Part shown: positions 20,534 to 50,547 of the stretch, piece by piece
How positions within the stretch are numbered: the first letter of the stretch is position 1
How the letters are laid out: every line of letters starts with the position of its first letter
Virus record (IMG/VR): IMGVR_UViG_3300006737_000004
Coordinates: 1 to 56,474 of that record
Origin: a virus
Taxonomy: Duplodnaviria; Caudoviricetes
Length of the DNA stretch: 56,474 bases
Direction: 5' to 3' (one strand)
Position numbers and translations under genes: made by a program
Notes under the pieces: generated by a model
The model's input: the letters and a program-made list of their open reading frames with translations, nothing else
What the model was told of the DNA's origin: nothing
Database searches by the model: none

Positions 20534-20905
20534 ATGCCAGGACCAGCAGCACCATTAGTATACGCAATACTTTCTTATGTAGCTAAAGAAGGTTTGAAAG
20601 CAGCAGTAAAAAAATACGGACCTAAAGAAGTAAAGAAGGCTCAAAAATTAGTAACAAAGTATAAAAAAACTTTAGATGCTGAAGATCAAGCTGCTGATTA
20701 TAACTATAGAAGTAATAAAGCTAGAGTTACGAGATCTAACAATTCTTTAAATAAAGAAATAACAGATATCCTTGGTCCTGACGCTAGTTCAAAAGATAAA
20801 ATTAATATAAGAACTTTGCTACAAAATACATCAGATAAATTTAATAAGGGCGGTCTAGTTAAAAAGGGACATACTGACCACAGAAAAAAAGGAATGTTTA
20901 GGTAA
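20534..20905 (+). CDS. Basic protein ending in FNKGG plus basic tail
   Basis: ATG at 20534; Lys-rich; C-terminus DKFNKGGLVKKGHTDHRKKGMFR. Confidence 0.7.
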   Translation: MPGPAAPLVYAILSYVAKEGLKAAVKKYGPKEVKKAQKLVTKYKKTLDAEDQAADYNYRSNKARVTRSNNSLNKEITDILGPDASSKDKINIRTLLQNTSDKFNKGGLVKKGHTDHRKKGMFR

Positions 20906-21357
20906 TGGCTTTTAAACTCAGTGCAAGAAGTATTAAGAAACTTGAAGGTGTAGAGAAAGACCTAGTAGCAGTTGTTATGGATGCTATTAAGTTGACTAAG
21001 GTAGACTTTGGAGTTACGTATGGTGTACGAACTCTTGCTGAACAGGAGAAGTTATACGCATCTGGTAGATCACAGACTATGAAAAGTAAACACCTAGATG
21101 GTAGAGCAGTAGACCTAGTTGCATACTTTGGCTCAGACATCTCGTGGGAACTAAATGTATATGATGACATCTGTGATGCAATGGCTGAAGCAGCTAGACG
21201 TAACAGTGTAGCAATCAAGTGGGGAGCAGCTTGGTCCGAAGGAGATATCCGAATGTATCAAGGTAGTGCAGAAGATGCCATGAATGCATATGTAGATCTT
21301 CGTCGTTCCCAAGGTCGTAGACCATTTATTGATGCCCCACACTTTGAAATGATTTGA
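20905..21357 (+). CDS. Endolysin, peptidase M15 family (L-Ala-D-Glu peptidase-like)
   Basis: F.LS.RS...L.GV, G.RT..EQ..L...G.S.TM.SKH..G.AVD, WG..W and D.PHFE. Confidence 0.9.
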   Translation: MAFKLSARSIKKLEGVEKDLVAVVMDAIKLTKVDFGVTYGVRTLAEQEKLYASGRSQTMKSKHLDGRAVDLVAYFGSDISWELNVYDDICDAMAEAARRNSVAIKWGAAWSEGDIRMYQGSAEDAMNAYVDLRRSQGRRPFIDAPHFEMI

Positions 21358-21444
21358 CGGTATAAACCTTTCTATAGTAGTTTATAATAGAAGGTGGGGG
21401 TAAACAGAGAACCGTCCTTGTTCCCCCTACAGATTGGACCTAAC

Positions 21445-21741
21445 ATGGCAATACCTGAACGAGTTAAAACTAAGATGAAGTCTGCAGGACTGAAGTCAGT
21501 GAATAAACCACAACGACTAAGTGATGGTAGTGGTAAGTCTCATCATGTTATGGCTAGTGAAGGTGGTAAGTATAAGTATATTAAGTTCGGTGAAAAAGGT
21601 GCATCTACTGCAGGTAAACCTAAAGCTGGCGAGTCTGACAGAATGAAAAAGAAACGTGCAAGTTTTAAAGCCCGTCATGCTAAGAATATTAAAAAGGGTA
21701 AAATGTCAGCAGCTTATTGGGCAAATAAAGTAAAATGGTAA
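21445..21741 (+). CDS. Small Lys-rich conserved phage protein
   Basis: NKP.R...KSH.V.A......I.FG..G...R.SFKARHA......MSAAYWA.KVKW; ATG at 21445. Confidence 0.75.
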   Translation: MAIPERVKTKMKSAGLKSVNKPQRLSDGSGKSHHVMASEGGKYKYIKFGEKGASTAGKPKAGESDRMKKKRASFKARHAKNIKKGKMSAAYWANKVKW

Positions 21742-21953
21742 GTTTGATATCCCACTTCCCTTTACCTGCTATGCCTTTTGATACGCATACAAATATAGTT
21801 TTTGAATCTGGTAAAAGTGAACTGATAAAAGAAACGGCAGCAGCCGTAGACAAAAAGGCAGATAAGTACAGATATGAAAGTGCTTATGCCTATCATCCTT
21901 ATAATAAACAACAACTAAGACAGGGTGAAACCGTAGACTTTGTAGTAGCATAA
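21735..21953 (+). CDS. Hypothetical protein
   Basis: 72-aa ORF overlapping the previous stop; ends GETVDFVVA. Confidence 0.6.
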   Translation: MVSLISHFPLPAMPFDTHTNIVFESGKSELIKETAAAVDKKADKYRYESAYAYHPYNKQQLRQGETVDFVVA

Positions 21954-21964
21954 GGAGAACAATC

Positions 21965-22117
21965 ATGCCTACAGTAGGAAAAAAAGAATACCCTTACACA
22001 AATAAGGGAATGGCTCAAGCAAAAGCTGCAGCCAAGAAATCAGGTAAACCGACGAAGAAAAAATCTGGTTATAACAAAGGTGGCATGGCTAAATGCGGTG
22101 CTTCATATAAAGGGTAA
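21965..22117 (+). CDS. Small Lys-rich protein with YNKGG (50 aa, not in ORF track)
   Basis: Read manually: MPTVGKKEYPYTNKGMAQAKAAAKKSGKPTKKKSGYNKGGMAKCGASYKG; AAGGAG RBS. Confidence 0.8.
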   Translation: MPTVGKKEYPYTNKGMAQAKAAAKKSGKPTKKKSGYNKGGMAKCGASYKG

Positions 22118-22122
22118 AACAA

Positions 22123-22656
22123 ATGGCCATATCACTACGTACATATCTAAACAACAAACTAAAAGAAAAGGGCATGACGGTTGCCCAAGCTAAAAAGAAT
22201 GCGGGTAAATACAAAAGTATTGCTGCAGCTAAAAAAGCAGGAGCACTTTACTACACAGATAAGAACGGTAAAGTAATGGCTGCTGTATATGCAGAAGATC
22301 TTAAAAAGCCTATTCGTCCAAGAGCACGACCAGAACCTAAAGTAGCAAAGACTGCTGCCCAACCTAAAGTAACAACTACCACTATTAATGATGGTAAAGG
22401 TAGGGGTGATGGTACAGTAGAGATGATCAAACGTAGATTAGATCCAAAGTCTCCACAAAACAAACCCAAGCCTAAAGCTAAAGTTAGTTTAAAACGTAAA
22501 GTATTAAATGTAAAAAACCCTTTCCTAAAAAATGATAAGGCTAAAGCATCTAAATGGAAAACTTGGATTAGTAAGAATAAAAGTAAATACGTAAAGGATA
22601 ATGGAAACCTTGATATGAATCAAGCTATGAAAGACTTTAAGAAGTCTATTAAGTAA
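22123..22656 (+). CDS. Lys-rich protein with RPRARP motif
   Basis: 177 aa, very basic; KYKSIAAAKKAG.LYY.DK.GK. Confidence 0.75.
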   Translation: MAISLRTYLNNKLKEKGMTVAQAKKNAGKYKSIAAAKKAGALYYTDKNGKVMAAVYAEDLKKPIRPRARPEPKVAKTAAQPKVTTTTINDGKGRGDGTVEMIKRRLDPKSPQNKPKPKAKVSLKRKVLNVKNPFLKNDKAKASKWKTWISKNKSKYVKDNGNLDMNQAMKDFKKSIK

Positions 22657-23013
22657 ATGCCCATACGTAATGGATCAAAATTTGTAACTCATGCAACTGC
22701 ATTAACGGGTACATCTGACACCGATTGTTATGTTGTACCCAAAAACTTTTCTTCGCATGTAGAACATCTATTAATTACTAATAGTGATAGTAGCAATAGA
22801 AACTACACTATTAAGTTTTATGAAAAAATAACTAACACAACACACACATTATACACAGCACATGCTGTATCAGGTAAAAGTGCTGAGTCAGTATTTACTG
22901 TAGATAAACCATTATTTCTTCATGCAGAGGATAAAATTATTGTTGCTGCAGGTACAGGAAATACTTTAACTGTAGTAGTTGCAGCAGAAGAGTTTTACGA
23001 TCCTAACCGTTAA
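22657..23013 (+). CDS. Small beta-rich structural protein (related to 40993-41337)
   Basis: Y.VP......LITN...L.L..EDKI.V pattern. Confidence 0.65.
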   Translation: MPIRNGSKFVTHATALTGTSDTDCYVVPKNFSSHVEHLLITNSDSSNRNYTIKFYEKITNTTHTLYTAHAVSGKSAESVFTVDKPLFLHAEDKIIVAAGTGNTLTVVVAAEEFYDPNR

Positions 23014-23026
23014 GTGCATAACGGGC

Positions 23027-23055
23027 TTGCAATAATGTCTGTAGTATGGTATAAC
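23027..23055 (+). promoter_or_regulatory. Sigma70-type promoter for the DUF1127 gene and downstream operon
   Basis: TTGCAA-N17-TATAAC(T) with an extended TG. Confidence 0.6.
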
Positions 23056-23120
23056 TAAGTATGATATAACTATCTCCACAAGGGTAAGGAATACTTACCT
23101 AAACATAAAGGAGATAGAAA

Positions 23121-23415: not shown

Positions 23416-23589
23416 ATGAAGGTTGATGCTCCAAAAGGATATCACTGGATGAGACAACCTAAGGGTGGATTCAAACTTATGAAACACAAAGGTAAGTTTG
23501 TTTCACACAAGGGTGCAAGTTTAAAAGCAGATTTTCCAATACAAAAGGTACACAGTGATGGCTCTAGCAAAAAGTCAAAAAAGTCTTAA
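23416..23589 (+). CDS. Small basic protein (57 aa, not in ORF track)
   Basis: Read manually: MKVDAPKGYHWMRQPKGGFKLMKHKGKFVSHKGASLKADFPIQKVHSDGSSKKSKKS; GGAGG RBS. Confidence 0.75.
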   Translation: MKVDAPKGYHWMRQPKGGFKLMKHKGKFVSHKGASLKADFPIQKVHSDGSSKKSKKS

Positions 23590-23833
23590 GTCTTGGACTA
23601 AACAAAAATGGCGAACTAAAAGTGGCAAGCCTAGTGCTAAAACTGGTGAACGTTATTTACCTGATAAGGCTATTAAGTCTCTTAGCAGCAGTGAGTATGC
23701 CGCTACAACCAGAGCTAAACGAAAAGGCACGAAGGCAGGTAAGCAGCATGTGGCTCAGCCTAAAAACATTGCAAAGAAAACTAGACCCTTTAGAGCCGCC
23801 AAGGGTGGAGTGGTAAGAAAGAAAAAGAAATGA
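23555..23833 (+). CDS. Small basic protein (SL..W.KQ.W.T..G...RYLP family) ending AAKGG plus basic tail
   Basis: SQKSLKSWTKQKWRTKSGK...ERYLP.KA...L...E...T...KR.G...GKQ.V. Confidence 0.75.
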   Translation: MMALAKSQKSLKSWTKQKWRTKSGKPSAKTGERYLPDKAIKSLSSSEYAATTRAKRKGTKAGKQHVAQPKNIAKKTRPFRAAKGGVVRKKKK

Positions 23834-26018: not shown

Positions 26019-28115
26019 ATGGAAGAAGAATTTGAAGATATGATCATGGATATGGAAGGCTCTGCTTCTGTTGAAGATGTAAAAGAAGAAGAACTTTCTG
26101 ATCCTAAGGCTGGACAAATAATCAGTTTTGTAGGGGAAAAGTACTCCAAAGCTGAGACTGCAAGGAAAACAGAAGAGCAGCGTTGGGTCCAAGCCTACCG
26201 AAACTACCGTGGTATTTACGGACCAGATGTGCAATTCACTTCAACTGAGAAGTCTCAAGTATTTGTTAAAGTAACTAAGACAAAAGTCCTAGCTGCATAT
26301 GGACAAATTGCAGAAGTTTTATTTGGTGGCAACAAGTTTCCAATTAGTATTGATCCCACTGTCCTTCCAGATGGGGTAGAAGAGACAGTAAACTTTGAAA
26401 CTAACCCAGAGCAAATGAAAGCTCAAGAGGGTCTACCTAGCCTCCTTCCTGGAGAGACTCTTCCAGAATTACAAGAACGCCTTGCAGGAATAAAGGAAGA
26501 CCTTCAACCAGTGATGGACAAGGTAGAATCTGGGTCTGCTAAGACTCCTACCTCTCCACAGTTCTTTCCTGCAGAAGTTGCAGCTAAGAAGATGGAAAAG
26601 AAAATCCATGACCAGTTAGAAGAATCTCACGCAAAGAAGCACCTACGGGCAGCAGCTTTTGAATCAGCTTTGTTTGGTACTGGTATTATGAAAGGTCCGT
26701 TTGCTGTAGACAAAGAATATGCAAACTGGGATGAAGAAGGTAATTACTCTCCTACTTTTAAAACTATCCCACAGACTACAAGTGTTTCTATCTGGAACTT
26801 CTATCCTGATCCAGATGCAGCAACAATGGAAGAAGCTGAGTATGTTGTGGAGCGTCATAAGATGTCACGTTCTCAACTACGAGCACTTAAGAATCGTCCA
26901 TACTTCCGTAAGAATGCACTAGACAATGCATTGAGTATTGGAGAGTCCTACACAAAAGAGTGGTGGGAACAGGCTATGGAAGATGAAGCAAATGAGTCTA
27001 AGTCAGAACGTTTTGAAGTTCTTGAGTTCTGGGGTTTTGTAGATACAGATATCCTAGAAGAGCAGGATATTGACATTCCTAAAGAGCTTAAGGATGCAGA
27101 GCAGTTAAGTGTTAATGTCTGGATCTGTAACGGTCAAGTACTTCGTTTGGTAATGAACCCCTTCACTCCTGCTTACATTCCGTACTTTGCTGCCCCTTAT
27201 GAAATGAACCCTTACAGCATATTTGGTGTAGGTATTGCAGAAAATATGGATGATACCCAAACTCTTATGAATGGGTTTATGCGTATGGCAGTAGATAACG
27301 CAGCACTATCAGGAAACTTACTTATCGAAGTAGATGAAACTAACCTAGTTCCTGGCCAAGACCTCTCTGTATACCCTGGAAAAGTTTTCCGTAGGCAGGG
27401 CGGTGCAATGGGTCAGGCAATCTTCGGAACAAAGTTTCCTAATGTAAGTTCAGAAAACATGATGATGTTTGATAAATCAAGGGTATTAGCAGATGAGAGT
27501 ACAGGATTTCCTTCGTTCGCACATGGGCAAACTGGAGTATCAGGAGTGGGAAGGACTGCTTCTGGCATCAGTATGCTTATGTCTGCAGCTAACGGCAGTA
27601 TACGAAATGTTGTCAAGAACATAGATGACTACTTGCTTGCACCACTAGGTAAAGCCTTCTTTAACTTTAATATGCAGTTTGACTTTGACCAAGAGATTAA
27701 AGGCGATCTAGAAATTAAAGCTCGTGGTACTGAAAGCTTAATGGCTAATGAAGTACGTAGTCAACGACTAATGCAATTCCTGCAAGTTGTACAAAATCCA
27801 GCACTAGCACCATTTGCTCGTATGGATTACATTGTACGTGAGATTGCTAAGTCTATGGATCTTGATCCTGATAAAGTTGGAAACAATATGGCACAAGCAG
27901 CAGTACAGGCTGAGATCCTAAAAGAGTTCCAAGCACAGAACCCACCACAACCAGAACCAGGAGTTCCACCACAGGCTGGTCCTCAGGGCGCTCCTGCTGG
28001 TGCACAGGTGCAGGATACCTCTGGAGCAGGGGGTGGGACTATAGGAACTGGTACAGCGCCTCAGCCAGGAGAACAGGGCTTCTCAGGTAACACTGGCCCA
28101 CAACAGGTACAATGA
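26019..28115 (+). CDS. Portal protein
   Basis: Follows TerL; W...YRNY.G, FGTG..K, FYPDP.A and RTASG.SML; Pro/Gln-rich tail. Confidence 0.9.
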   Translation: MEEEFEDMIMDMEGSASVEDVKEEELSDPKAGQIISFVGEKYSKAETARKTEEQRWVQAYRNYRGIYGPDVQFTSTEKSQVFVKVTKTKVLAAYGQIAEVLFGGNKFPISIDPTVLPDGVEETVNFETNPEQMKAQEGLPSLLPGETLPELQERLAGIKEDLQPVMDKVESGSAKTPTSPQFFPAEVAAKKMEKKIHDQLEESHAKKHLRAAAFESALFGTGIMKGPFAVDKEYANWDEEGNYSPTFKTIPQTTSVSIWNFYPDPDAATMEEAEYVVERHKMSRSQLRALKNRPYFRKNALDNALSIGESYTKEWWEQAMEDEANESKSERFEVLEFWGFVDTDILEEQDIDIPKELKDAEQLSVNVWICNGQVLRLVMNPFTPAYIPYFAAPYEMNPYSIFGVGIAENMDDTQTLMNGFMRMAVDNAALSGNLLIEVDETNLVPGQDLSVYPGKVFRRQGGAMGQAIFGTKFPNVSSENMMMFDKSRVLADESTGFPSFAHGQTGVSGVGRTASGISMLMSAANGSIRNVVKNIDDYLLAPLGKAFFNFNMQFDFDQEIKGDLEIKARGTESLMANEVRSQRLMQFLQVVQNPALAPFARMDYIVREIAKSMDLDPDKVGNNMAQAAVQAEILKEFQAQNPPQPEPGVPPQAGPQGAPAGAQVQDTSGAGGGTIGTGTAPQPGEQGFSGNTGPQQVQ

Positions 28116-28324
28116 AACTGGTCGTGAATAATACTTTAAAACCTTTTGTAAATAACCCTGAGCTATATAACCCTTTCCTTGAAGAGATTGATGAAAGGAT
28201 TATGTTTGCTCAGATAGCTCTTGAACAATCTAGAGAACCCGATGAGTTGTTTAGATTACAGGGTGAGATACGTGCACTCAGGTCACTATTAAGATTAAGA
28301 GATAAAATCAATGGCAGCTCCTAA
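28112..28324 (+). CDS. Portal-associated hypothetical protein
   Basis: LEQ......FRLQGEI.AL..L..LRD pattern typical of the gene after portal. Confidence 0.7.
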   Translation: MKLVVNNTLKPFVNNPELYNPFLEEIDERIMFAQIALEQSREPDELFRLQGEIRALRSLLRLRDKINGSS

Positions 28325-31300
28325 TACATCTTTAAGACCTAAAGCTAGGCCTGAGTCTCAGACAGAGCGTATGCTCAAACCTAAGACTATAGCTCAAGTT
28401 AAGGAAGACTTGCAGCAAAAACAACTTGCAGCAGATTTTGGAGATGTTGAATTTAGAGCCGATTTAGAACCACAATTTTCTTGGAATCCTCTAGCTAGAC
28501 TAGGGTACGATCCGAAGAAAGCTAAAGTCTTACCCTCTAGCCTTCTCGAACCTAACAATGCGTATGCAATTCCTGATAGTTCAACTGTAGAACGTATTAC
28601 AAATGCATCAGAATTTAAAAGAAGTGACCCTTTAGAGGTTGAAAGAATTAATCCAGGAGATGTAGTTACTAAAGGTCCAACTGCAGTTTCTCCTGTCTGG
28701 TCTCACGAATTTACTCATAAAGGTATTGAAAGGTTAAAAGAATACTTAGATGAAGATCCAGAATTTTTTAAAGGGAAGTATGGAGAAAAAACTTTTAATT
28801 TAATTAATAAAATTTCTAAAGGGGGTAAAGAAGCAAAGGATGGTAATGAACGGGTCACTGAATTTTTTGATTACTTAGAAGACACTATTAATGTTCCTGG
28901 ATATACCGTTTCAAAAAAACAAATAGACAAAAGTTTAGAAATTCCTGAGATTAAACCAGAAACGCAAAAACTTTTAAAAGAAAAAGATTTTAATGAAGAC
29001 GGTCAGATTTCTGCTATGGAATTTGCACAGGATACTTTTCTTGCTAATTCCTCTTGGGGAGGAGATAGAGAAGAGTTTCAAAAATACCTTAAGTCACCTA
29101 ATAAGAAAAGAAAAAAATATCTAAAAAGTTTATTTCCAGGTCTTATGGGAGCTGTACAGGCAGCACAAGATTTACTTGAAGCTCAAGGAGAAGTGCCAAA
29201 GGTTAAGAAAAAAACTTTAAGTTTTTGGGAAAAGGTAGCAAAACATTTTGGATATAGTAGATTAGGTTTTAACGAAGGTGGAGATGTAATAGGCCCAAAG
29301 TCTGAGCTAGAAAGACAACGAGAAGTAAATATAGCTGAACAAATGGCTACTCTCCCTAAGAAAAAAGATGAGTATAAACCATCCGTAGATCCTCAGAAAG
29401 AAGAGATTATAAAAAAGTATAATCTAGACGGTGCTAGATCTGGTTGGCAAGTTGGACCTACTACATTTCATACTATTTATGAAAACCTTCCAACTAACTT
29501 TAGACTTCTTACAGAGTTTATCCTTGGTAAAGATACACCTATCACTATGGCAGATTTTACTAAAGATGAACTAGTTTCAATGATAGCTCTTTCAGAGAAT
29601 CAGGAAAAAAATAAACTTAACCTTAAAAACAGAAAGTTAAAAGATCAACCTGAAAATGTAACAACAGTTACTACTTATAAACTTAAACCTACTGATAGGT
29701 ATCCTGATTGGGTTGAAAGTAATCCATACTTTAGAGCTATGGCACACAGTCTTTTTAGCCCTGAATACCAAGTACGTACAACTTTAGGTAGGTATGATAC
29801 AGAAGATACTCCTTCAAGTCTCATAGTAAAAGATGCATACGATATGAATATTGGACAAAGGAGCTTACCTAAACTTAGTAACCGTAAAGATTTAGCAGAA
29901 GTGTTAGACTACATGCGAATTGATCCTGAAATGGCAGGAGAGTTTATAGCAAATGTTTTCAGACCTAACCCAGAAGATTCAAGAAAGATTGACTTAGTAA
30001 TACCAAAAAGAAAAAAGGTTGAAAATTTTAACGAAGGTGGTGATGTATCAGCTCAAATGCAATCTTTGATGATACCTTCTGCAGATAACGATATTCGTCC
30101 AGAAGATTATGTTCAGTATAGAGAAGATAACTTTACTCCAGCAAGCTTTGCAGAAGACTCTTGGGAAGATACGAAGAAAAGATTTATGGATGCAGGTAGG
30201 ATTGATGTAAATCCCGATGATCCTGCTATCTTCACTGCATATAAACGTGCTGTTGATTATCTTAAAGATACAGGGCTTGCAGGTTTAGGTTTAGCTGATA
30301 CTGCATTTAAATATGCTGTAGGTTCTGCAGCTCAGGTTATGCCTACAGAAGCTTTAGAAAAACGTATGGCTAGAGATCTTTACTCTATGCCAGAAGCTTT
30401 TGCTGGAGCAGCAGGTGCTAGAAGCCTAACTCAACTTGATGATGCAGCAGATGCATTTCTTGAAGGGTCTCTGCACGTAGCACGTAAAGCAGGTCAAATG
30501 AAACCTGACCCCAATACACTTGCAAGTTTTGCTGGAGCTGTGCCTCCTACATATATACAGAGAGATACTCCACTTTCTGAAATGGGAGAGTACCAACTTG
30601 ATTATTTTCGTCAAGTAGAACCCACCGAAAAAACAAAACTGAAAGACTTAGAACTCCTCCAATTTAGAGAACCTATTTCAGAGTTTATAAAAAACTTAAC
30701 TATACCTAAAAAAGGTATGATAGGATCAGAGTTTTTAAACCAAATAAAAAAGAATCCCTCTATCCCAGAGACTTCTTTACAAGAGGGTATTATAGATCCC
30801 AGTAAAAGATATACTAAGGAGGAGTTACTTGGGGCCATAGGAGTAGGAAAAAATACTCAAGGCACTTTTAGATCTGCTGCAAATATTTCTCCTTATAGAA
30901 TAAAACAATTTGAAGGCAATCAAAGACAAACAAAAGATGCAGGGTTTCAAGGTGGAAGAGAGGTTGAGTATTTTGATATACCCATAGATACGACTATTGG
31001 ATATCCTGGGAAACGTTTTAGGGCTAATTATCAACATTATAGTCCAGAAACTTTAGTTCATGTTAGAGGTTCTATTGTAAGTCCTTATAGACAAATTGAG
31101 TTTTCTCCTAGAAAAATAAAAGAGTTTGACAAGATTATTGGGGGTAAAAATTACTTACTCGGAGAAGAGCTTCAGTCTGACCTTCTTACTAAAGGTTATG
31201 CAAAACCAAATAATTTTTTTGACGCTGTATTTTCTGAAGCTACAAAAAACTGGGAATCTGCTAATCTTGTTACTTACCAAGAAGCTCTTGGTGATATAGA

Positions 31301-34127
31301 TAAAGAAATTAAAAAGGTTTTAAAGCTTCTTGATGATCCATCTTCAGCCCACCTTTCTCCTGGAAGAGTTTCCAGTAATCCTAAGTTTTATCATTTTTCT
31401 TCAGAGTACACCAACAAGGTAAACTTTGAAGATAGAAAGAGGGGATTAAAAGGTCTTGCAAGTCTAGATAGAATTGATTATGACGAGCTTTCAGATCTTC
31501 TTATTAAAACAAGTGCAACTGAAAAAGACATAGATCAGGTTTTTGAAACGTTAAAAGCTGATGCACTATTAGAACCAATACTCCTAAGAAAATCTGCAAT
31601 AGATTCAATGTGGGAGAATGATCCTGAAGCTGCAGTATTCTTTGAAGGTGGGCTAGACGACGTTGATTTTCTTACTCACGACGAGCTTGTAAATTTACCA
31701 GAAGTTAATTCAATAAATGATAAAGGTATAAAAGAAGACTTTTTAAACTATCATAATAAACGGCAGCAAGCTCTTGACAGTGCAACTGAAGAATACTTAA
31801 ATTTTTTACAGTCTCAAATAGATAAGTTAAAAATAAATGATACAATAGATGCTAAAGATTTAGCCGAACTTCATGAAAATATGATAATGGCTCAGTCTTA
31901 TACTCCAGATACTTCAGAGATTGGCCTACCTCCAATACGTAAAAATAAACAAGCTGTAGATGAAGCACTTAAAGTTCTTATTGCCAAAGCAGCACAATCA
32001 GGTGTAGACAAAATTGTCATACCTCCAGCAAGTCGTATTGCTTTAGCTAGGGGTAGAGATCTTGAGAAAGATAAGGGTGATAGGTTTTATAGAACTTATG
32101 TAACTGACTTAAACAAATCCTTAAAGGAGCTTGAAGAAAACTACCCTGTTGTAATACACAGGGATGTTGAAATGCCTTATGGTATCAGGGGAGAAGCAAG
32201 TACTGATGAGCTTATAGGATTTGAAGATATAGATCAAAATCTAGGTTTTGATGCGGAAAATGACCCAGAAATAACAAATCTCCTTAATGAAATGGCAGGA
32301 GATATTGATATGGAAGCTATTGGTCAACAAATAACTGAATTAGTAGATCAAAACTTAAACGATGTCAATCAAGTTGTAGTAACTGAACCCTTAGGTAATG
32401 AACTTCTACCTCCTAGTCAAAGGAAAAAAACAGTTGATGTAAGTGACAAAGGTACAATTATAGATATCTCAGAACTAGTTAATAGATTTAAAGTAGAACA
32501 ACCAAGACAGTTTGCCCAAGGAGGCGTAGCAATGAATAAACAAATGGAAATGGCTTTTATGCAACAAGGTGGATTGCAGGATGACGGGATGAATCAAGAT
32601 CCTGTATCTGGTAATGAAGTACCCTCTGGGTCGATGGCTTCAGAAGTACGAGATGATATCTCTGCCCAGTTGTCTGAAGGTGAATATGTTGTACCTGCTG
32701 ATGTTGTTCGTTATCTTGGAGTAAAACACTTTGAAGACTTGAGAGATAAAGCTAAAAACGGACTTAATAAAATGGAAACTGATGGTCGTATTGGTGGAGA
32801 ACCCGTACCTGTTGGTGGACCTAAAGCAGGTCTACGACCAGATGAGATGCAAGAAATACAAAAGATGTTTGAAGGTGGTATGGTAGCTGGAGCTGCAAAT
32901 GGAGCAGACTTTAGTTTCTATAATCCTACAGGATCAACTGTAGAAGAAGCTGTAACCACTCCTGGACCTGCAGGTAGACCTATGTACAGTGGAGAGTTTA
33001 GCTTTGAGCAACCTGGAGCTGGTTTAGCTACACCACCACCTGAAGTAACAATACCTGAAACACCAGAACAAAAAGCTGTAACACTGTATGGACCAAGTGG
33101 TGAAGTTATAGCTTTGATGCTACCTAGAGACCAAACTATGTATGACCAACTTATTGCTCAAGGTTATGGACTTACAGCACCACAAATAGAAAAAGAAAGA
33201 AGTGATAAAGATAAAGATAAAGAAGTACAAACTGATCCAAATGCTTGGATGGATAAGTATGACTATAATAATCTAGACAATTTAGCTACACAAACAGAAG
33301 ATCTTTTAACTGCTGAAAAAGGTTTTATAGGTAAAGTACTTGGTGGAGGGGTTATAGGCATGTTTATTTCTGCCAGTAATGCAGCTCAGGCAGCAGCTAA
33401 CATAGCAATTCTTAAATCTAATGGACAAGAAGCTGAGGCAGAAAGATTAAAAACTTTGTGGGATGGTTACGTAAAACAGAATAAGATTGACGTACTCCCC
33501 AGTTTCACTTATAATGGTGATCAATTAACAAGACAAATTGTACAAAATAATCCAGGAAAAGACCTTGGACTACAGTTTGGAGATACGGATGTAAACGGAG
33601 ATCCAATCTTTAAAAATCAAAAAGACTTTGATGACTTTGCTCAAAGTGTTGCACCAGAAGGTATGACTTTTATTCCTGATAAAGGGAAATACATAAGGCC
33701 AGAAGGAGTATCTTATGAACCAGAAGAGCTTCCAAGACCCAAAGCTAGACCTACTTCTTATCAACCCCCTAAACCTGAAGTATCAGATTCTTCAGCCTTA
33801 CAAACAGGTCCAGAAATAAGAGGCAGGAAACGACCTCAACCCAAAACTGCACCTATTGATGACCCTCTTGAACAAATACAGGACGCTGCTAATAGAAAAA
33901 GCAGAGAAGCTCATCTCCCTGGCCCCCGTAAGTCAGATATACCTTCTTCTTCTTCTATAGAAGATAGGACAGATATAGTTTCAGAATCTTTAGCTGATAA
34001 ACAAGCAAAACAAGCAAAACAAAAAGCTATAAAGAGAACAGAAGAAACTCTTAAAGCTATGGAAAGAGGTGTTCAAAGGGGATTTAAAAAAGGCGGCTTG
34101 ATGAAAAAGAAAAAGAGTAAAAAATAA
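28311..34127 (+). CDS. Giant multi-module protein, probably a virion internal/cargo protein
   Basis: 1938 aa; HEFTH motif, EELQSD domain, DPVSGNEVP...DD...LSEGEYVVPADVVRY domain; six [FM]xxGG motifs. Confidence 0.8.
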   Translation: MAAPNTSLRPKARPESQTERMLKPKTIAQVKEDLQQKQLAADFGDVEFRADLEPQFSWNPLARLGYDPKKAKVLPSSLLEPNNAYAIPDSSTVERITNASEFKRSDPLEVERINPGDVVTKGPTAVSPVWSHEFTHKGIERLKEYLDEDPEFFKGKYGEKTFNLINKISKGGKEAKDGNERVTEFFDYLEDTINVPGYTVSKKQIDKSLEIPEIKPETQKLLKEKDFNEDGQISAMEFAQDTFLANSSWGGDREEFQKYLKSPNKKRKKYLKSLFPGLMGAVQAAQDLLEAQGEVPKVKKKTLSFWEKVAKHFGYSRLGFNEGGDVIGPKSELERQREVNIAEQMATLPKKKDEYKPSVDPQKEEIIKKYNLDGARSGWQVGPTTFHTIYENLPTNFRLLTEFILGKDTPITMADFTKDELVSMIALSENQEKNKLNLKNRKLKDQPENVTTVTTYKLKPTDRYPDWVESNPYFRAMAHSLFSPEYQVRTTLGRYDTEDTPSSLIVKDAYDMNIGQRSLPKLSNRKDLAEVLDYMRIDPEMAGEFIANVFRPNPEDSRKIDLVIPKRKKVENFNEGGDVSAQMQSLMIPSADNDIRPEDYVQYREDNFTPASFAEDSWEDTKKRFMDAGRIDVNPDDPAIFTAYKRAVDYLKDTGLAGLGLADTAFKYAVGSAAQVMPTEALEKRMARDLYSMPEAFAGAAGARSLTQLDDAADAFLEGSLHVARKAGQMKPDPNTLASFAGAVPPTYIQRDTPLSEMGEYQLDYFRQVEPTEKTKLKDLELLQFREPISEFIKNLTIPKKGMIGSEFLNQIKKNPSIPETSLQEGIIDPSKRYTKEELLGAIGVGKNTQGTFRSAANISPYRIKQFEGNQRQTKDAGFQGGREVEYFDIPIDTTIGYPGKRFRANYQHYSPETLVHVRGSIVSPYRQIEFSPRKIKEFDKIIGGKNYLLGEELQSDLLTKGYAKPNNFFDAVFSEATKNWESANLVTYQEALGDIDKEIKKVLKLLDDPSSAHLSPGRVSSNPKFYHFSSEYTNKVNFEDRKRGLKGLASLDRIDYDELSDLLIKTSATEKDIDQVFETLKADALLEPILLRKSAIDSMWENDPEAAVFFEGGLDDVDFLTHDELVNLPEVNSINDKGIKEDFLNYHNKRQQALDSATEEYLNFLQSQIDKLKINDTIDAKDLAELHENMIMAQSYTPDTSEIGLPPIRKNKQAVDEALKVLIAKAAQSGVDKIVIPPASRIALARGRDLEKDKGDRFYRTYVTDLNKSLKELEENYPVVIHRDVEMPYGIRGEASTDELIGFEDIDQNLGFDAENDPEITNLLNEMAGDIDMEAIGQQITELVDQNLNDVNQVVVTEPLGNELLPPSQRKKTVDVSDKGTIIDISELVNRFKVEQPRQFAQGGVAMNKQMEMAFMQQGGLQDDGMNQDPVSGNEVPSGSMASEVRDDISAQLSEGEYVVPADVVRYLGVKHFEDLRDKAKNGLNKMETDGRIGGEPVPVGGPKAGLRPDEMQEIQKMFEGGMVAGAANGADFSFYNPTGSTVEEAVTTPGPAGRPMYSGEFSFEQPGAGLATPPPEVTIPETPEQKAVTLYGPSGEVIALMLPRDQTMYDQLIAQGYGLTAPQIEKERSDKDKDKEVQTDPNAWMDKYDYNNLDNLATQTEDLLTAEKGFIGKVLGGGVIGMFISASNAAQAAANIAILKSNGQEAEAERLKTLWDGYVKQNKIDVLPSFTYNGDQLTRQIVQNNPGKDLGLQFGDTDVNGDPIFKNQKDFDDFAQSVAPEGMTFIPDKGKYIRPEGVSYEPEELPRPKARPTSYQPPKPEVSDSSALQTGPEIRGRKRPQPKTAPIDDPLEQIQDAANRKSREAHLPGPRKSDIPSSSSIEDRTDIVSESLADKQAKQAKQKAIKRTEETLKAMERGVQRGFKKGGLMKKKKSKK

Positions 34128-34203: not shown

Positions 34204-35109
34204 ATGCCTGAACTAACAGAAATGGAAACACCAAAGACTGCAGGATTTGTTGAACGTGGATCAAACTACATGAAGCGTAAACAAGAAATGAAAGATGAAG
34301 AAGAGGAGATCAAACGTCTTGAAGCTGAACAGCGAGGAGAATCTGAATCAGAAGAAGAAGAAACAACTGAAGAAGAAACTACCGAAGCGAAAGAGGCCGA
34401 TACAAAAGATAAAGAAGAGACGTTATCTCCAGAAGAAAAGTCTTTCAAAAAACGCTATGGTGATCTAAGACGACACATGCAGCAGAAGGAAAAGGAGTGG
34501 GATGCTAAACTTGAGAACCTACAAAAGGCTTCTGAAAAAGCGGGTATCATACCACCCAAGTCTGATGAAGACATAGAGGAGTGGGCTAAGGAGTATCCTG
34601 ATGTAGCTGGAATTGTAGAAACTATTGCAGCTAAGAAAGCCCAAGAAATGTTTGAAAGGGCTAACACTCGGATTAAGGAACTTGATGAGGCTCAATCAGA
34701 AGCTAATCGAGTAAAGGCAGAAAATGAAATACGTAAAACTCATTCAGACTTTGACGAGCTACGAGATTCAGACGGATTTCATGATTGGGCTGACGAACAA
34801 CCTAAGTGGGTTCGTGATGCTTTGTATGAAAACTCTGACGATCCAGCATCTGTGGTCCGTATAATTGATCTGTATAAAGCAGACAAAGGTCTTACCACTA
34901 AGGATAAGAAAGCTAAAACAAAAGAAGCAGCTAAGACAGTTACTAAACGTAGTAGAACGGAAGTAGATGTAGCTGATGCTAACGACATGATTCGGGAATC
35001 AGATGTTGCAAAAATGTCTGACAAAGAATTTGAAGAACGTTCAGATGATATTAATACAGCAATGCGCAATGGAAAATTCATCTATGACGTGTCTGGTTCT
35101 GCCAGATAA
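34204..35109 (+). CDS. Capsid scaffolding protein
   Basis: Acidic coiled coil, FKKRYGDLRRH, H.DF......F..W, C-terminal MS..EFE...I..A...G; directly upstream of the capsid gene. Confidence 0.8.
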   Translation: MPELTEMETPKTAGFVERGSNYMKRKQEMKDEEEEIKRLEAEQRGESESEEEETTEEETTEAKEADTKDKEETLSPEEKSFKKRYGDLRRHMQQKEKEWDAKLENLQKASEKAGIIPPKSDEDIEEWAKEYPDVAGIVETIAAKKAQEMFERANTRIKELDEAQSEANRVKAENEIRKTHSDFDELRDSDGFHDWADEQPKWVRDALYENSDDPASVVRIIDLYKADKGLTTKDKKAKTKEAAKTVTKRSRTEVDVADANDMIRESDVAKMSDKEFEERSDDINTAMRNGKFIYDVSGSAR

Positions 35110-42650: not shown

Positions 42651-44293
42651 TGGCAGGATATATTGGATCAAAAATGTCCGTCACTTTAGTTGGTGGCGGT
42701 ACATTTAATAGTGATGTTACCTTTGAAGATAATGCAGATATTATAACAGCTAGTGCAGGTACTTCTAACTTTCGTGCAGGTGTAAACGCAGGGAACTCTA
42801 TTGCTTCTGGTGGTAACTATAATGTAGTAGTGGGCGATGAGGCTGGTACTGCAATTACGACAGGTGATTACAATGTGGCTGTTGGTTATATTGCAGGTGA
42901 TGCAATCACTACTGGTGAGAGAAACGTAATCGCAGGTTATAGTGCAGGTGGTGCTTTAACGGTAGGTGGATCAAATACAGCCATTGGTGACAGAGCATTA
43001 TTGGCAGATACGCAGGGTTCAAGTTCTGTTGCCATTGGTAGAAATGCGTTATTTGCTCAAAACTTTACATCAGCTACTACTGTTTACAATGTTGCCATTG
43101 GCAGGGATGCAGGTGCATCAATATCTACAGGCATACAAAACACCCTGATCGGTGGTCTGACAGGTGATGCCTTAACTGTTGGCACTAAAAATAATGCTAT
43201 GGGTTATCGTGCACTCAGTTTCGATACACAAGGCAGCAAATCAGTTGCGATTGGAAACTTTTCATTAGCTAGTCAAAACTTTACGTCAGCTACTGATACT
43301 TACAATACTGCTGTTGGACATGCCGCAGGTGAAGGCATTACGACAGGCGTACAGAATACTCTTACTGGCGGTCTGGCAGGAGATGCTTTAACGGATGCAG
43401 ATTATAATGTGGCAATCGGTTATGCAGCATTAACTTCAGACACACTAGGCAGTAGGTCGGTAGCTATAGGTACTAATGCTCTTAATGCACAAAACTTTAC
43501 CTCTGCTACAAATACTTACAATACGGCTGTGGGTAATAATGCAGGTGAATCAATTACGACAGGTACAGGAAACACCTTTCTAGGTGCTAGTGCAGGTGAT
43601 GGTACTGATAATGGTAATAATAATACTGCTGTTGGTTATATAGCACTTAATGCCAACTGTGGTGACGAAAACACAGCGGTTGGCGAAAATGCTTTAGGCC
43701 GTTGCACAGGTTCTACCAATACAGCAGTGGGCAAAGATGCAGGTGAATATGTAACAAGCGGTTCTAACAATATTCTTTTAGGGCCAGACACAGGAGTTTC
43801 AGGAAGCCCCGGTGGTCAGATTACTACTGGTACTAATAATATCGTGGTAGGTGACGAAAATAATGATGCTGCTTACATCCAAATAGATTGGACTGTAGCC
43901 TCTGACCAACGTGACAAGACAGACTTTACAGCACTAGACTTAGGCTTAGACTTTGTTAAGGCGTTGTCTCCTGTTACTTACAAGTGGGATAAACGTTCTA
44001 AGTATGGTGATAAGCGTGCGGATGATTATGATCTTAATGCACAGACACCAGACGGTACGCACAAAGAAGATTGGTTAGACATAGGCTTCAAAGCACAAGA
44101 AGTAGAGGCACTAGAAATAGCTGCTGGGTATAAGATTGCTGACAAAACAAACTTAGTAACATCACTTACTTCTGATGGTAAACAATATGGGATGCAGTAC
44201 AGCAAGTTTGTACCAATCCTAGTCAAAGCCATACAAGAACTGTCTGCTAAGAATGCTGCACTAGAAGCTCGTATAGCTACATTGGAAGGTTAA
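42650..44293 (+). CDS. Tail fibre / receptor-binding protein 2 (YadA-like beta-roll repeats) with S74 chaperone
   Basis: N[TV]A[VI]G..A 14-aa repeats; SDQRDK, GFKAQEV and LVKAIQEL. Confidence 0.88.
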   Translation: MAGYIGSKMSVTLVGGGTFNSDVTFEDNADIITASAGTSNFRAGVNAGNSIASGGNYNVVVGDEAGTAITTGDYNVAVGYIAGDAITTGERNVIAGYSAGGALTVGGSNTAIGDRALLADTQGSSSVAIGRNALFAQNFTSATTVYNVAIGRDAGASISTGIQNTLIGGLTGDALTVGTKNNAMGYRALSFDTQGSKSVAIGNFSLASQNFTSATDTYNTAVGHAAGEGITTGVQNTLTGGLAGDALTDADYNVAIGYAALTSDTLGSRSVAIGTNALNAQNFTSATNTYNTAVGNNAGESITTGTGNTFLGASAGDGTDNGNNNTAVGYIALNANCGDENTAVGENALGRCTGSTNTAVGKDAGEYVTSGSNNILLGPDTGVSGSPGGQITTGTNNIVVGDENNDAAYIQIDWTVASDQRDKTDFTALDLGLDFVKALSPVTYKWDKRSKYGDKRADDYDLNAQTPDGTHKEDWLDIGFKAQEVEALEIAAGYKIADKTNLVTSLTSDGKQYGMQYSKFVPILVKAIQELSAKNAALEARIATLEG

Positions 44294-46831: not shown

Positions 46832-46841
46832 GGAAAAAGAA

Positions 46842-47063: not shown

Positions 47064-47085
47064 CTTAACATAAAGGAGAAAGCTA

Positions 47086-47307: not shown

Positions 47308-47327
47308 AATATAAAGGCTGAATAAAT

Positions 47328-47600: not shown

Positions 47601-47641
47601 ATAACTGGAGTCTTTCTTTTAGGTAATTTAAGCAGGGGGGA

Positions 47642-48109
47642 GTGCTTATGATTGATCCAGTAACAGCTATAGCTGGTGCAACCGCAGCTTTTAATGCCAT
47701 AAAGAAAGGCATACAGGTTGGAAGAGACCTGCAGGATATGGGCAGTCAACTCTCTCAATGGGCAGGCGCTGTAGCAGACCTGGACTTTGCAGACAGACAA
47801 ACCCAAAAGCCACCTTGGTATAAGGCTCTAGGTGGTGGTGTTGAAGCACAGGCAATGGAGATATGGCAAGCTAAACAAAAAGCTGAGTCCATGCGTAAAG
47901 AATTAAAAGACTACATATCGGTTATGTATGGCCCATCTAAGTGGCAAGAGATACTTGAGATAGAAGCCAAGTTAAGAAAACAAAAGAAAGAACACGAGCA
48001 CAGACAAATAGAAATTAAGCAAAAAATAATAGAGTGGTCAGCAGGTATAGCTGTATTTATTATTTGCACTGGATGTTTGTTTGGATTTGTATATTTAGGG
48101 ACTAGATAA
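47642..48109 (+). CDS. Membrane protein
   Basis: MIDP.TA.A.A.AAF..IK N-terminus and a C-terminal TM helix. Confidence 0.7.
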   Translation: MLMIDPVTAIAGATAAFNAIKKGIQVGRDLQDMGSQLSQWAGAVADLDFADRQTQKPPWYKALGGGVEAQAMEIWQAKQKAESMRKELKDYISVMYGPSKWQEILEIEAKLRKQKKEHEHRQIEIKQKIIEWSAGIAVFIICTGCLFGFVYLGTR

Positions 48110-50547
48110 TGATGAATTTAGATGCAGAACACAACTTAGCTAATAAGTTTCTTGGGTATACTGGTGAAAAATCTAGACCAGCTCTTGATGGTTTTTACAA
48201 GTCGAATCCAGGTGCTGCTGCACGTATGGGAGAGTATAGTAAAGCTATTACTGGCATGGCCAAAGGTGGATACTACGGTGGATATACAGGTATTCCTGGT
48301 GGTGAGAGGGGAAGAACTCCCCCAAGTGTAGCTCCTAAACAAGAGGTAGTACGTCCTAAAGCTAGACCAACCCCTGCTCCTACACCTAAACCTGTAAGTA
48401 AACCTAATGTTCCTACTATTAGACCCAGAGCAAGACCTACAGAAGCACAAAATATTTCTTTCGCCTCTTCATACCCCGAACCTAAAAGTATAACCACCTT
48501 TACAGATAACTCAGGTGCAACTGTTGCAGAGTCTACTGATAGTAAGACCACAACCATTAACCGTTCTAGTCAATCTGGTGACAACTTAATTCGTCAAGCT
48601 ATAGAACTTAATGTACCAATTGAGTTTTCTGAAAACGGTCAGTCAGCCTCTGTATCTAATGCAACTATGGAGAAGCTTGCTACATCTAAATTTGGGATTA
48701 AAAGTGGGATGCTTATGGCTGAACACAAACGAAGAAACCCTGCAGGAGGCTACAGTTCTTTCCACTTGGGTATTGGGCCAGAAGGAAACCTTAACATCTT
48801 TGACCCTAAGAACATGGATGTTACTGGTGGTAAGATGAAGGTGGGCTACAAGAGTACCTTTAATGAAGGTGGTGCTGTTCGTGGTTACGTAGAGGGTGGA
48901 GACAATATAAGCTATAAAGAAGATATTATACCTAAGTTTGGTAAAACTGTAGAAGAAACTATGCAACCTACACAAGCTGATGTATCTTATATCGCACCTA
49001 CTGCAGATCAAGATATAGACCCAACTGCAGGTCAAGTAAGTACTACAGCGCCTACTGCTGAAGTAGCAACTGTTGACACGACAGCTCAAGCTACTATGCC
49101 TATAACAGCTCCTGCTGCTACCTATGGTGCTGCTGCCGTAGCTCCTGAAGTGGGAAAGGTAACAGCAGGTATGCAACCTGTTGAGGGTGAAGTAAGTCAG
49201 GAAGCACAAGTAACTGCTGCTCAACAGAATGAGTCTGCAGTGTCTGGTATGCAAGCTGCTCAAGGTGCTGCTAACATTATGCAGAATCCTGTACAGCGAG
49301 AGATTCAACAGGGTGAACTTGTTAGTGGTGCTGCAGACGCTCAGAAGGCCGCACAGTTTACTGAACAGGTACAGGCTGCTACAGCTACCCCAACAAGTCA
49401 AGCTACTGTACAGGGTCAGCTAGAGGGGCTTATGCAACAGTTTGAGGGTGGTGCTACACCTGCATGGGCTGCTGGAGCTATGCGTAATGCTACTGCTGCT
49501 ATGGCTGCTAGAGGACTAGGTGCTTCTAGTATGGCAGGACAAGCTCTTGTACAAGCTGCTATGGAATCTGCCTTACCTATTGCCCAAGCTGATGCACAAA
49601 CAGTTGCACAATTTGAAGCACAGAACTTGTCAAACCGTCAACAACGTGCTATGCTTGCTGCACAACAACGTGCTACATTTATGGGACAGGAGTTTGATCA
49701 AGCATTCCAAGCTCGTGTACAAAACTCAGCTCGTATTGGTGACATTGCTAATATGAACTTTACTGCAGAGCAGAACATTGCTCTTGAGAACTCTCGTGCA
49801 GTAAACACTATGAACCTAGCCAACTTAGGTAATCGTCAGGCTATGGTTATGGCAGAGGCTGCTGCACTATCACAACTTGATATGTCTAACTTGAATAACA
49901 GGCAACAAGCCGCAGTACAAAATGCTCAGTCGTTTATGCAAATGGATATGACTAACGTAGCTAATGCACAGCAGACAGCTTTGTTTAAGACTCAACAGAA
50001 TGTTCAGGCTTTGTTCACTGATCAAGCTGCTACTAACGCTGCTGCACAGTTTAATGCTTCGAGTGAGAACCAGACTAACCAGTTCTTCTCACAACTCTCA
50101 AGCCAGACTTCACAGTTTAATACAGCACAAACCAATGCAATGAGCCAGTTTAATGTCGATGCAACTAACTCTATACGGCAGTTCAATGCAAACTTGCAGA
50201 ACCAGAGAGATCAGTTTAACGCTAACAATGGATTGGTTGTAGCTCAGGCTAATGCTCAGTGGAGACAAAACATTGCAACACTTAATACTGCTGCACAGAA
50301 CGAGAGTAATATGAACTATGCAAAGACCATTAACTCTTTAACCTCAAGTAACTTGGATCAGATCTGGCAACGTGAGAGAGACTTGATGCAGTATAACTTT
50401 CAATCCTCTGAAGATTCTAAAGATCGTGCACTACAAATCTTATTGGCAGATAAAAGTTTAGAAGAGTTGAAGGAATCTATTAAATATTCAGAAGACAAAG
50501 GTAAGACTAAGTTTATTTTTGACCTGTTGTTTAATGCTTTTGATTAG
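48109..50547 (+). CDS. Internal virion (ejection) protein, Gln/Ala/Asn-rich
   Basis: P.WA.GA.R...M..RGLGASS.AG.A...A..ESA.PIA and QFNA repeats; three xxxGG and two RPxARP motifs. Confidence 0.8.
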   Translation: MMNLDAEHNLANKFLGYTGEKSRPALDGFYKSNPGAAARMGEYSKAITGMAKGGYYGGYTGIPGGERGRTPPSVAPKQEVVRPKARPTPAPTPKPVSKPNVPTIRPRARPTEAQNISFASSYPEPKSITTFTDNSGATVAESTDSKTTTINRSSQSGDNLIRQAIELNVPIEFSENGQSASVSNATMEKLATSKFGIKSGMLMAEHKRRNPAGGYSSFHLGIGPEGNLNIFDPKNMDVTGGKMKVGYKSTFNEGGAVRGYVEGGDNISYKEDIIPKFGKTVEETMQPTQADVSYIAPTADQDIDPTAGQVSTTAPTAEVATVDTTAQATMPITAPAATYGAAAVAPEVGKVTAGMQPVEGEVSQEAQVTAAQQNESAVSGMQAAQGAANIMQNPVQREIQQGELVSGAADAQKAAQFTEQVQAATATPTSQATVQGQLEGLMQQFEGGATPAWAAGAMRNATAAMAARGLGASSMAGQALVQAAMESALPIAQADAQTVAQFEAQNLSNRQQRAMLAAQQRATFMGQEFDQAFQARVQNSARIGDIANMNFTAEQNIALENSRAVNTMNLANLGNRQAMVMAEAAALSQLDMSNLNNRQQAAVQNAQSFMQMDMTNVANAQQTALFKTQQNVQALFTDQAATNAAAQFNASSENQTNQFFSQLSSQTSQFNTAQTNAMSQFNVDATNSIRQFNANLQNQRDQFNANNGLVVAQANAQWRQNIATLNTAAQNESNMNYAKTINSLTSSNLDQIWQRERDLMQYNFQSSEDSKDRALQILLADKSLEELKESIKYSEDKGKTKFIFDLLFNAFD

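Follow-up and report, generated by a model that had tools for sequence, protein, structure and literature searches.

A portable Gly-Gly peptide at the ends and module joints of late proteins in an HMO-2011-type marine podophage

Virus record IMGVR_UViG_3300006737_000004 (Caudoviricetes) is a stretch of 56,474 bases, here called the window, and is complete with direct terminal repeats. It is the genome of an HMO-2011-type marine podophage, and several of its late proteins carry a short peptide of the form [FMY]xxGG, which is the subject of this report. The terminase and portal region has 67-72% DNA identity to Roseobacter phages CRP-13, CRP-9, CRP-1, and CRP-2 and to Puniceispirillum phage HMO-2011. 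Replication and nucleotide-metabolism genes are located on the minus strand from 1 to ~17.5 kb, and lysis, packaging, and virion genes are located on the plus strand from ~19 kb. The plus strand begins with a holin-like gene, a basic 137-residue open reading frame (ORF), an M15 endolysin, several small basic ORFs, and the small and large terminase. These are followed by an SU10-type portal, a 70-residue ORF, a 1938-residue protein, an acidic scaffold-like protein encoded at 34204-35109, and a P22-like coat protein. An SU10-type adaptor and fibers come after the coat, and the last block is made up of proteins of 812, 278, 174, 325, and 1167 residues, none of which matched a family in Pfam and PHROG scans. 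The portal is unusually conserved and is at least 85% identical in 120 homologues among the matches listed.

A six-frame scan recovered all 12 copies of the motif that the initial annotation had listed. Eleven are [FMY]xxGG, each in a long plus-strand ORF, and one is the variant AAKGG (Table 1). The carriers are five proteins, namely the 137-, 50-, and 92-residue ORFs, the 1938-residue post-portal protein, and the 812-residue protein. They had been called otherwise unrelated, which is uncontradicted, as they matched different PHROGs or none. Four copies precede basic C-terminal tails, as had been described, and a C-terminal position of the motif is found in four proteins. The loose pattern has four further late-strand matches: FFEGG at 31638, YSAGG at 42938, YVGGG at 51171, and MKKGG at 53429.

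Table 1. Motif copies and associated features in the window
Feature	Positions	Strand	Basis or remark
FNKGG, then LVKKGHTDHRKKGMFR and stop, near the C-terminus	20840..20854	+	basic 137-residue ORF 20492-20905
YNKGG, then MAKCGASYKG and stop	22070..22084	+	basic 50-residue ORF 21965-22117, below the default ORF-list length; phrog_33179, E 4.6e-10
AAKGGVVRKKKK and stop, tail on the 80-residue core of a conserved small basic protein	23795..23830	+	92-residue ORF 23555-23833; phrog_14910
Portal protein	26019..28115	+	PF23899 SU10_portal, E 2.4e-28; next long gene 3' encodes the LSEGEYV-domain protein
1938-residue post-portal mosaic ("polyvalent"-type) protein	28311..34127	+	seven loose-motif copies; mosaic homology
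HEFTH (HExxH), N-terminal module of the 1938-residue protein, residue 132	28704..28718	+	no Pfam peptidase match
FNEGG, residue 320 of the 1938-residue protein, module junction	29268..29282	+	starts of high-scoring segment pairs (HSPs); coil of lowest predicted local distance difference test (pLDDT) score
FNEGG, residue 573 of the 1938-residue protein, module junction	30027..30041	+	HSP starts
FFEGG, residue 1110 of the 1938-residue protein	31638..31652	+	no clear breakpoint (single HSP start, residue 1115)
FAQGG (site A), joint between the variable N-terminal 1400 residues and the conserved domain	32511..32525	+	homologue alignment
MQQGG (site B), consensus A-F-M-[Q/N]-[E/Q]-G-G-L-K-D-D	32559..32573	+	233 homologues
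Near-invariant core DPVSGNEVP.GS..EVRDDI.AQLSEGEYVVPADVV...GRIGGEP	32598..32804	+	43 invariant columns
MFEGG (site C), after a predicted helix	32865..32879	+	homologue alignment, AlphaFold2 model
FKKGGLMKKKKSKK and stop, C-terminal tail (site D) of the 1938-residue protein	34083..34124	+	189/235 homologues end GG-hydrophobic-polybasic
MAKGG, residue 50 of the 812-residue protein (48109-50547)	48256..48270	+	six-frame scan
Tandem pair FNEGGAVRGYVEGG, 9-residue period, 812-residue protein	48859..48900	+	six-frame scan

The peptide is real, conserved, and portable. It is restricted to the late strand, closes both modules and whole proteins, lies at module junctions, is gained or lost on orthologues, and flanks a near-invariant domain. 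The initial annotation had read it as a tag for loading cargo into the prohead or as a protease cleavage site, and this reading is supported in part: the peptide is under selection and portable, and its carriers are a limited set of late proteins, plausibly internal or ejected in the virion. The annotation's placement of the motif at basic C-terminal tails and module borders was likewise borne out by the tails, the breakpoints, and the conserved sites described below.

A peptide of this kind could be a chance by-product of late proteins that are rich in glycine and lysine. Chance was assessed with 300 within-protein shuffles that kept the composition of each protein, for 36 late proteins (11,856 residues) and 27 early proteins (5,596 residues). 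The loose pattern [FMY]xxGG was observed 15 times in late proteins against a shuffled mean of 7.3. This is no more than about twofold, and 2 of the 300 shuffles reached 15. Some of the loose matches look incidental (YSAGG in a Gly-rich fiber, and YVGGG), and the refined pattern [FMY]x[KEQRN]GG[LMVIAD] was chosen post hoc, after the data had been seen; all of this speaks for chance. Against it, [FMY]xxGG[LMVIA] was found 10 times with 2.3 expected and the refined pattern 11 times with 0.64 expected, counts reached by none of the composition-keeping shuffles. In early proteins, the three patterns in the same order gave 1 versus 2.5, 1 versus 0.66, and 1 versus 0.24. The GG dipeptide as such is not enriched (84 versus 80). 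The refined pattern was then used without change on six relatives. Four of these show late-strand enrichment (4 versus 0.62, reached by 4 of 300 shuffles; 5 versus 0.63, 6 versus 0.64, and 6 versus 0.41, each reached by none). CRP-3 (2 versus 0.81) and HTVC033P (1 versus 0.70) do not, and the early strand has no match in any of the six. A count in late versus early proteins and in relatives had been proposed in the initial annotation, and it came out in favor of the motif. The sites are also kept position by position in 235 homologues and coincide with breakpoints. Chance is refuted for the core set of copies, and composition is a very improbable source of the motif.

The tail of the 92-residue protein is separate from its core. 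The phrog_14910 profile covers residues 2-80 only, and the orthologues in HMO-2011, CRP-1, and HTVC033P align only up to residue 80 (...KKT..FR). The CRP-13 orthologue runs on into a longer ORF with two motif copies. Of 79 complete orthologous viral-contig ORFs, 12 have a G-G tail after the core (two of them, L010 and L083, recognized by eye and the other 10 by pattern), a share biased upward in that the loci are the best 80 of at least 598 and one search pattern included the tail. The other 67 lack the tail and end a few residues past the core. Arrays of two to four motif copies are present in L014, L024, L026, and L079, with four copies in L014. Some of the orthologue tails end in ...GGVVQAKCGASYKG, as does the 50-residue ORF of this genome, and the ...GG.AKCGASYKG ending of that ORF recurs in CRP-1, CRP-13, and locus L024. 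The small tagged basic proteins are assumed to be virion proteins; no virion proteome for the HMO-2011-type phage group was found in the literature.

The core of this very basic 92-residue protein (23555-23833, plus strand) keeps 72-89% identity over no fewer than 598 viral contigs, and that of the distant pelagiphage HTVC033P still has 79%, which is unusual for a phage protein without known function. The 137-residue ORF matched no PHROG or Pfam family and has a weak NCBIfam match to the C-terminal end of the "SAR2788 family" (31 bits; cut-off 50). It is flanked by the holin-like gene and the endolysin, and translation probably begins at the ATG at 20534. An "SEGG" in p115 was considered as an extra copy and rejected, as the GG is missing in three of five orthologues.

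The 812-residue protein has syntenic counterparts that carry copies of the motif. MAKGG or MATGG is found at residues 49-67 in HMO-2011, CRP-13, and MW202701, and the tandem pair with a 9-residue period recurs in HMO-2011, CRP-1, and MW202701.

The post-portal giant protein contains four motif sites, A to D, that are kept over 235 homologues. Of the 210 homologues that extend upstream of site B, 208 have a GG at most 30 residues ahead of it (site A), and the consensus among these is F(74%)-[N/A]-[K/E/Q]-G-G-x-V-M. Site C has the consensus M-[A/N]-x-G-G-[M/F]-V, with a frequency that is not independent, since the search pattern already required the motif. Site D is the C-terminal tail, [R/F/L/M/Y]-[N/A/K]-[K/E/T]-G-G-L-M-x-K-K-K.

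Sites A to C flank the domain named here after its LSEGEYV sequence. This domain is the sole constant part of a highly variable protein, whose gene lies just 3' of the portal gene, after the 70-residue ORF. An alignment of 26 proteins that are 30-62% identical overall has its 43 invariant columns between DPVSGN and GRIGGEP. The stretch from FAQGG to MFEGG (residues 1395-1530) has 5511 relatives at E<=0.001 among 90%-identity clusters and 2916 among 50%-identity clusters. Relatives that bear the domain are 176 to 2050 residues long, and the domain can lie anywhere from the N-terminus to residue ~1440. It is present in this genome and in five relatives whose orthologous proteins retain copies of the motif. 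HTVC033P has no motif copies in orthologous proteins, and the domain is undetectable there at E<=10; CRP-3 has the domain, yet the motif is unenriched by the shuffle test. Co-occurrence across these seven related genomes, which is probably one evolutionary event, leaves the domain, which the initial annotation had also named, a candidate anchor or reader of the motif.

The domain matches two PHROGs annotated as tape measure protein (phrog_3547, E 7.8e-6; phrog_5448, E 1.6e-4). A link to tape measure proteins had been made in the initial annotation, and it gains support from these matches and from the arrangement of GG, GE-x-V, and GG that lambda gpH and T5 pb2 share on direct reading. Pfam (to E<=5) and NCBIfam searches gave no match for the domain and, with four other segments of the giant protein included, nothing beyond weak EF-hand matches. 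PDB sequence searches with the domain, as a single sequence and as a profile, returned nothing or low-complexity noise.

An AlphaFold2 (AF2) monomer model of the C-terminal 544 residues gives the LSEGEYV domain low confidence, with pLDDT block means of 45-75, and residues 190-400 of the model score 84-96. Low scores beside a well-scored region fit a segment that may fold on a partner. Helices end one to two residues before the GG at two of the four copies in this model and six residues before it at a third. Foldseek found no match at E<=0.001, and the VIA wide structure search with the C-terminal model found generic helical matches only (Z<=6.5). Residues 190-400 (model region 32493-34124, plus strand) form a confident fold of beta hairpins followed mostly by helices, for which no structural match was informative (best Z 6.5).

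Internal copies of the motif are located where modules have been exchanged. The first 1400 residues of the 1938-residue protein were compared by BLAST with 234 other homologues, giving 91 HSPs. Twenty-six of these start at the two FNEGG copies, eight at residues 320-321 and 18 at residues 572-582. The sequences ahead of these junctions are unrelated (...SKHGV, ...FTAKRA, ...NPQFR, ...LNLQG), yet each runs into F-N-x-G-G or N-x-G-G, after which comes the common downstream module. Homologue P0005 lacks precisely the segment that separates the two copies. Fourteen homologues start no more than seven residues past the second FNEGG and have no motif there; 12 begin with MAAL(E/K)(N/D), and two begin otherwise. 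The motif is thus present on ends that are joined to something upstream and missing from the 14 free N-termini. No motif is present at the other breakpoints of this protein (residues 738, 1008, 1205, and 1290).

The two FNEGGDV coding stretches (29268-29288 and 30027-30047, plus strand) are identical at 20 of 21 bases, and this microhomology matches the exact deletion in P0005. Codons differ among the remaining copies, and selection therefore acts on the protein and not on the DNA. More broadly, the 1938-residue protein belongs to a very mosaic cargo family in abundant marine phages. Its near relatives swap in LPD23, CHAP/NlpC-P60, and a second, HE(I/L)QH zincin-like module (P0007, P0089, and others).

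An alternative reading is that the motif is a processing site. A phage or host protease, or assembly-dependent self-cleavage, would split the mosaic protein into its modules and trim the basic tails after packaging. T4 removes its capsid targeting sequences, and processing here would resemble this. The distribution of the motif only where two modules join, and not at free N-termini, is consistent with cleavage. Modules with HExxH occur in 49 of 109 homologues longer than 1000 residues, in two different types, and autoprocessing of polyvalent proteins by modules of the HExxH type is predicted by Iyer et al. (PMC5512222).

The HExxH module had been proposed in the initial annotation as a candidate reader or cutter of the motif. 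It does not serve as a general one. In HMO-2011 and CRP-1, the post-portal protein begins with the conserved domain and has no HExxH module, although these phages keep the motifs, and fewer than half of the long homologues have any HExxH. No protease is found to co-occur with the motif. That no prohead protease is evident, as had been noted, agrees with Pfam and PHROG scans of 49 ORFs (36 late and 13 early). In the homologue set, the residue ahead of the presumed cut can be F, Y, M, L, or R, which fits no single specificity. Trimming of 10-13 C-terminal residues would also lack an evident purpose unless the tail were a transient signal.

Evidence for cleavage also comes from tape measure proteins. 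T5 pb2 is cut after R1127, as reported from mass spectrometry (PMC10038345). On direct reading of the sequence, R1127 is the first residue of R-A-E-G-G-M-M, which is followed by GEHGTEVVTP, so that the cut is R|AEGGMM. One copy of the motif is thus a documented cleavage point, and R-A-E-G-G-L-M stands in many of the homologue tails of the present protein. If FAQGG were cut as in T5, the product would correspond almost exactly to the short form for which HMO-2011 and CRP-1 have a separate gene. The T5 cut may, however, merely reflect an exposed linker.

Lambda gpH is also processed. A piece of ~14 kDa is cut from its glycine-rich region, near a like arrangement, with site and enzyme given as unknown in the 2025 Ur-lambda paper (PMC12617516). 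Residues 733-785 of gpH contain the GG / GE-x-V / GG arrangement, including ...RGYATGGYVG..., and the C-terminus reads ...QMRDGGLFSGGGR. A hypothetical cut after F733 would give a 79.8 kDa N-terminal fragment and 12.5 kDa, which is only roughly compatible with the ~14 kDa piece. The 79.8 kDa fragment is presumably close to the reported size of gpH*. Any cut within residues 706-740 is at least as compatible, and this wide window weakens lambda as support for cleavage at the motif. The T5 cut, a distribution limited to junctions, and the HExxH modules found in many homologues place processing second; overall it is possible and on balance unlikely.

T5 pb2 and lambda gpH resemble the proteins here in having hydrophobic-x-x-G-G-hydrophobic followed by G-E-x-V, with a further x-x-G-G in lambda. 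They leave the virion ahead of the DNA, as the proteins here presumably do. The differences are also clear. The present phage is a podophage without a tape measure, the module is in a post-portal mosaic protein, and copies also stand alone on small basic proteins. The His of the H-x-x-E "peptidase" signature of T5 and lambda is missing from LSEGEYV.

The motif could also be structural punctuation that has no reader. As a helix stop or hinge, it would keep modules independent for compact storage and for threading one by one through the portal and tail channel, and a shared recombination joint would be a by-product. The pattern hydrophobic-x-x-G-G-hydrophobic matches the classical helix C-cap, the Schellman motif. 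The helix ends ahead of GG in the C-terminal model are in keeping with this, as is a second AF2 model, of residues 1-700. The latter is poor (mean pLDDT 46.4), and both FNEGG copies lie in its lowest-confidence coil (24 for residues 311-330 and 28 for residues 571-580). Module-exchange breakpoints that fall on the motif and the near-identical FNEGGDV coding stretches likewise suit a hinge that doubles as a joint. All known carriers are proteins that pass through a narrow channel, be they tape measure, cargo, or ejection proteins. Unaccounted for by a hinge are the copies at the extreme C-terminus that are followed by just 6-10 basic residues in 189 of 235 homologues, the tandem tag arrays on small proteins, and the strong conservation of positions -2 and -1. 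The breakpoints without the motif and the codon differences, which place selection on the protein, also stand against it. Ranked third, behind docking and cleavage, a reader-less hinge is doubtful.

The interpretation favored here, held tentatively, is that hydrophobic-[N/A]-[K/E/Q]-G-G-hydrophobic-[V/M] is a portable end-and-joint element of proteins that are stored in the head and ejected, and that it most likely acts as an uncut docking handle. This is placed first because of the terminal tails and tandem arrays, the constant domain in an otherwise varying protein, the lack of a co-conserved protease, and the ordered lambda C-terminus. No protease is conserved with the motif in the scans described above, and HExxH is found in under half of the long homologues. 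In lambda virions, only gpH residues 818-849 are ordered, on the gpI plug, according to PMC12617516. The gpH end M-R-D-G-G-L-F, residues 842-848, lies within this ordered segment.

We infer that the tagged proteins are in the virion and that the motif binds a receptor there and stays uncut. The pair of glycines would end a helix and make the chain turn. The two hydrophobic residues that flank them, in many cases along with a polybasic tail, would fit a common receptor at or near the portal. The LSEGEYV domain with its three flanking copies would be the main anchor that holds the freely varying giant protein at the portal vertex, and the portal protein is the putative receptor of this conserved domain. 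Copies on the small basic proteins and on the 812-residue ejection-type protein, single or in tandem, would recruit these to the portal vertex. Modules could be swapped or fused at the motif because the element would be self-contained.

A solved virion offers a possible parallel to docking. In the Bacteroides phage crAss001, residues 425-552 of cargo protein C1 (gp45) form a compact domain on the portal wing, as described by Bayfield et al. 2023 (PMC10172136). Direct reading of this region gives ..AFGGW..QGGDF..INEGG...LVEQGEVVYDDYVF...MFAYGG, and a basic tail rich in G-G closes the protein. With its GG copies, a ..LVEQGEVV.. segment, and FAYGG, the region resembles the LSEGEYV domain and its flanking copies; unlike here, the hydrophobic residue of several crAss copies is away from position -3. 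Two of the three top named ESM-atlas clusters for the LSEGEYV domain are crAss_CARG1, with a score of 0.82, which is a lead only. The search for crAss gp45 homologues returned only sequences at least 98% identical, so there was no useful profile.

Encapsulin cargo-loading peptides and T4 capsid targeting sequences are short, portable, terminal peptides that direct otherwise unrelated cargo into an HK97-fold shell. In T4 the signal lies at the N-terminus, and the prohead protease removes it. The motif here differs from both in its consensus and in its internal copies at joints, and no prohead protease was found in the 49 ORFs.

Several observations weigh against an uncut docking handle. In T5, a copy of the motif is in fact a cleavage point. 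A docking tag would have to be present just once per protein, and a linker or a cut site better explains the conserved internal copies at joints. These internal copies are followed by acidic and not basic residues (FNEGGDV), which makes a single receptor for all copies doubtful. Neither AF2 model is good near the motifs, and just seven related genomes underlie the joint occurrence of domain and tag. Comparison of the domain with the single lambda gpH and T5 pb2 sequences was insignificant (hhalign probability 0.2%, BLASTP E 0.24), as was comparison with crAss001 gp45 (hhalign probability 1.5%, BLASTP E 0.33), and crAss_CARG1 (PF25725) has no match in this genome at E<=10.

The 1938-residue protein also resembles the polyvalent proteins described by Iyer, Burroughs, Anand, de Souza, and Aravind (2017; PMC5512222), each a giant late-gene protein of swappable modules. 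It is likewise large and module-shuffling and lies among virion genes. Polyvalent domains are present in its homologues: LPD23 (PF18838) in the close homologue P0007, CHAP/NlpC-P60 in P0089, and HExxH in many of the long ones. The 1938-residue protein itself has no Pfam polyvalent domain, though HEFTH is present. Like polyvalent proteins, it is presumably delivered together with the DNA. The description of polyvalent proteins in PMC5512222 includes neither the joint motif nor the invariant LSEGEYV domain nor tags on small, separately encoded proteins.

Other double-glycine systems were considered and rejected. Double-glycine leader export would involve a C39 peptidase and an N-terminal leader that ends in GG. 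The 49 ORFs scanned against Pfam and PHROG gave no match to such a peptidase, and the motifs here lie internally or at the C-terminus and are not leaders. GlyGly-CTERM and PEP-CTERM are sorting signals, and the adenovirus protease recognizes (M/L/I)XGG. In both cases the spacing or length differs from the motif here, and no matching enzyme was found.

Full-text literature searches found no published description of the motif. The words "glycine" and "linker" are absent from the text of Iyer et al. 2017 (PMC5512222), and "glycine" is absent from a 2022 review of ejection proteins and from the phiRIO-1 paper. The G-G peptide and the G-E-x-V module might together form a widespread, undescribed code across HMO-2011-type and crAss-like podophages and the T5 and lambda tape measures. 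Such a code would specify which proteins wait at the portal or tail-tip channel and leave before the DNA, and in some lineages it would also be the place of a cut. This broader proposal is speculative and rather improbable. If it were true, T5 pb2 cleavage, lambda gpH processing, crAss cargo docking, and polyvalent-protein loading would be one mechanism.

The recruitment of internal and ejected proteins into phage heads is poorly understood, as are how and where tape measure proteins are cut. A conserved, portable peptide that marks such proteins is a direct experimental handle. The phages that carry it are among the most abundant in the sea, and the domain is represented by 5511 clusters at 90% identity. 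If the tag were sufficient for loading, it could also serve to load phage particles with proteins of choice.

Further observations concern the early, minus-strand genes. A 324-residue protein (12375-13349) matches phrog_4191, "peptidase", at E 2.2e-78, with a weak M28/M42 aminopeptidase Pfam match below the cut-off. It was rejected as a partner of the motif on account of its exopeptidase-type resemblance and early-strand expression, and no link to the G-G motif was found. The adjoining 521-residue gene (13352-14920) has no family. A Cas4-domain exonuclease homologue is also among the early genes (4419-5330; phrog_1990, E 4.1e-38). The genome is otherwise lytic-looking and of HMO-2011 type, and it encodes a tyrosine integrase (11370-12254; phrog_1, E 1.8e-40). 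According to their records, HMO-2011 and CRP-1 also have an integrase.

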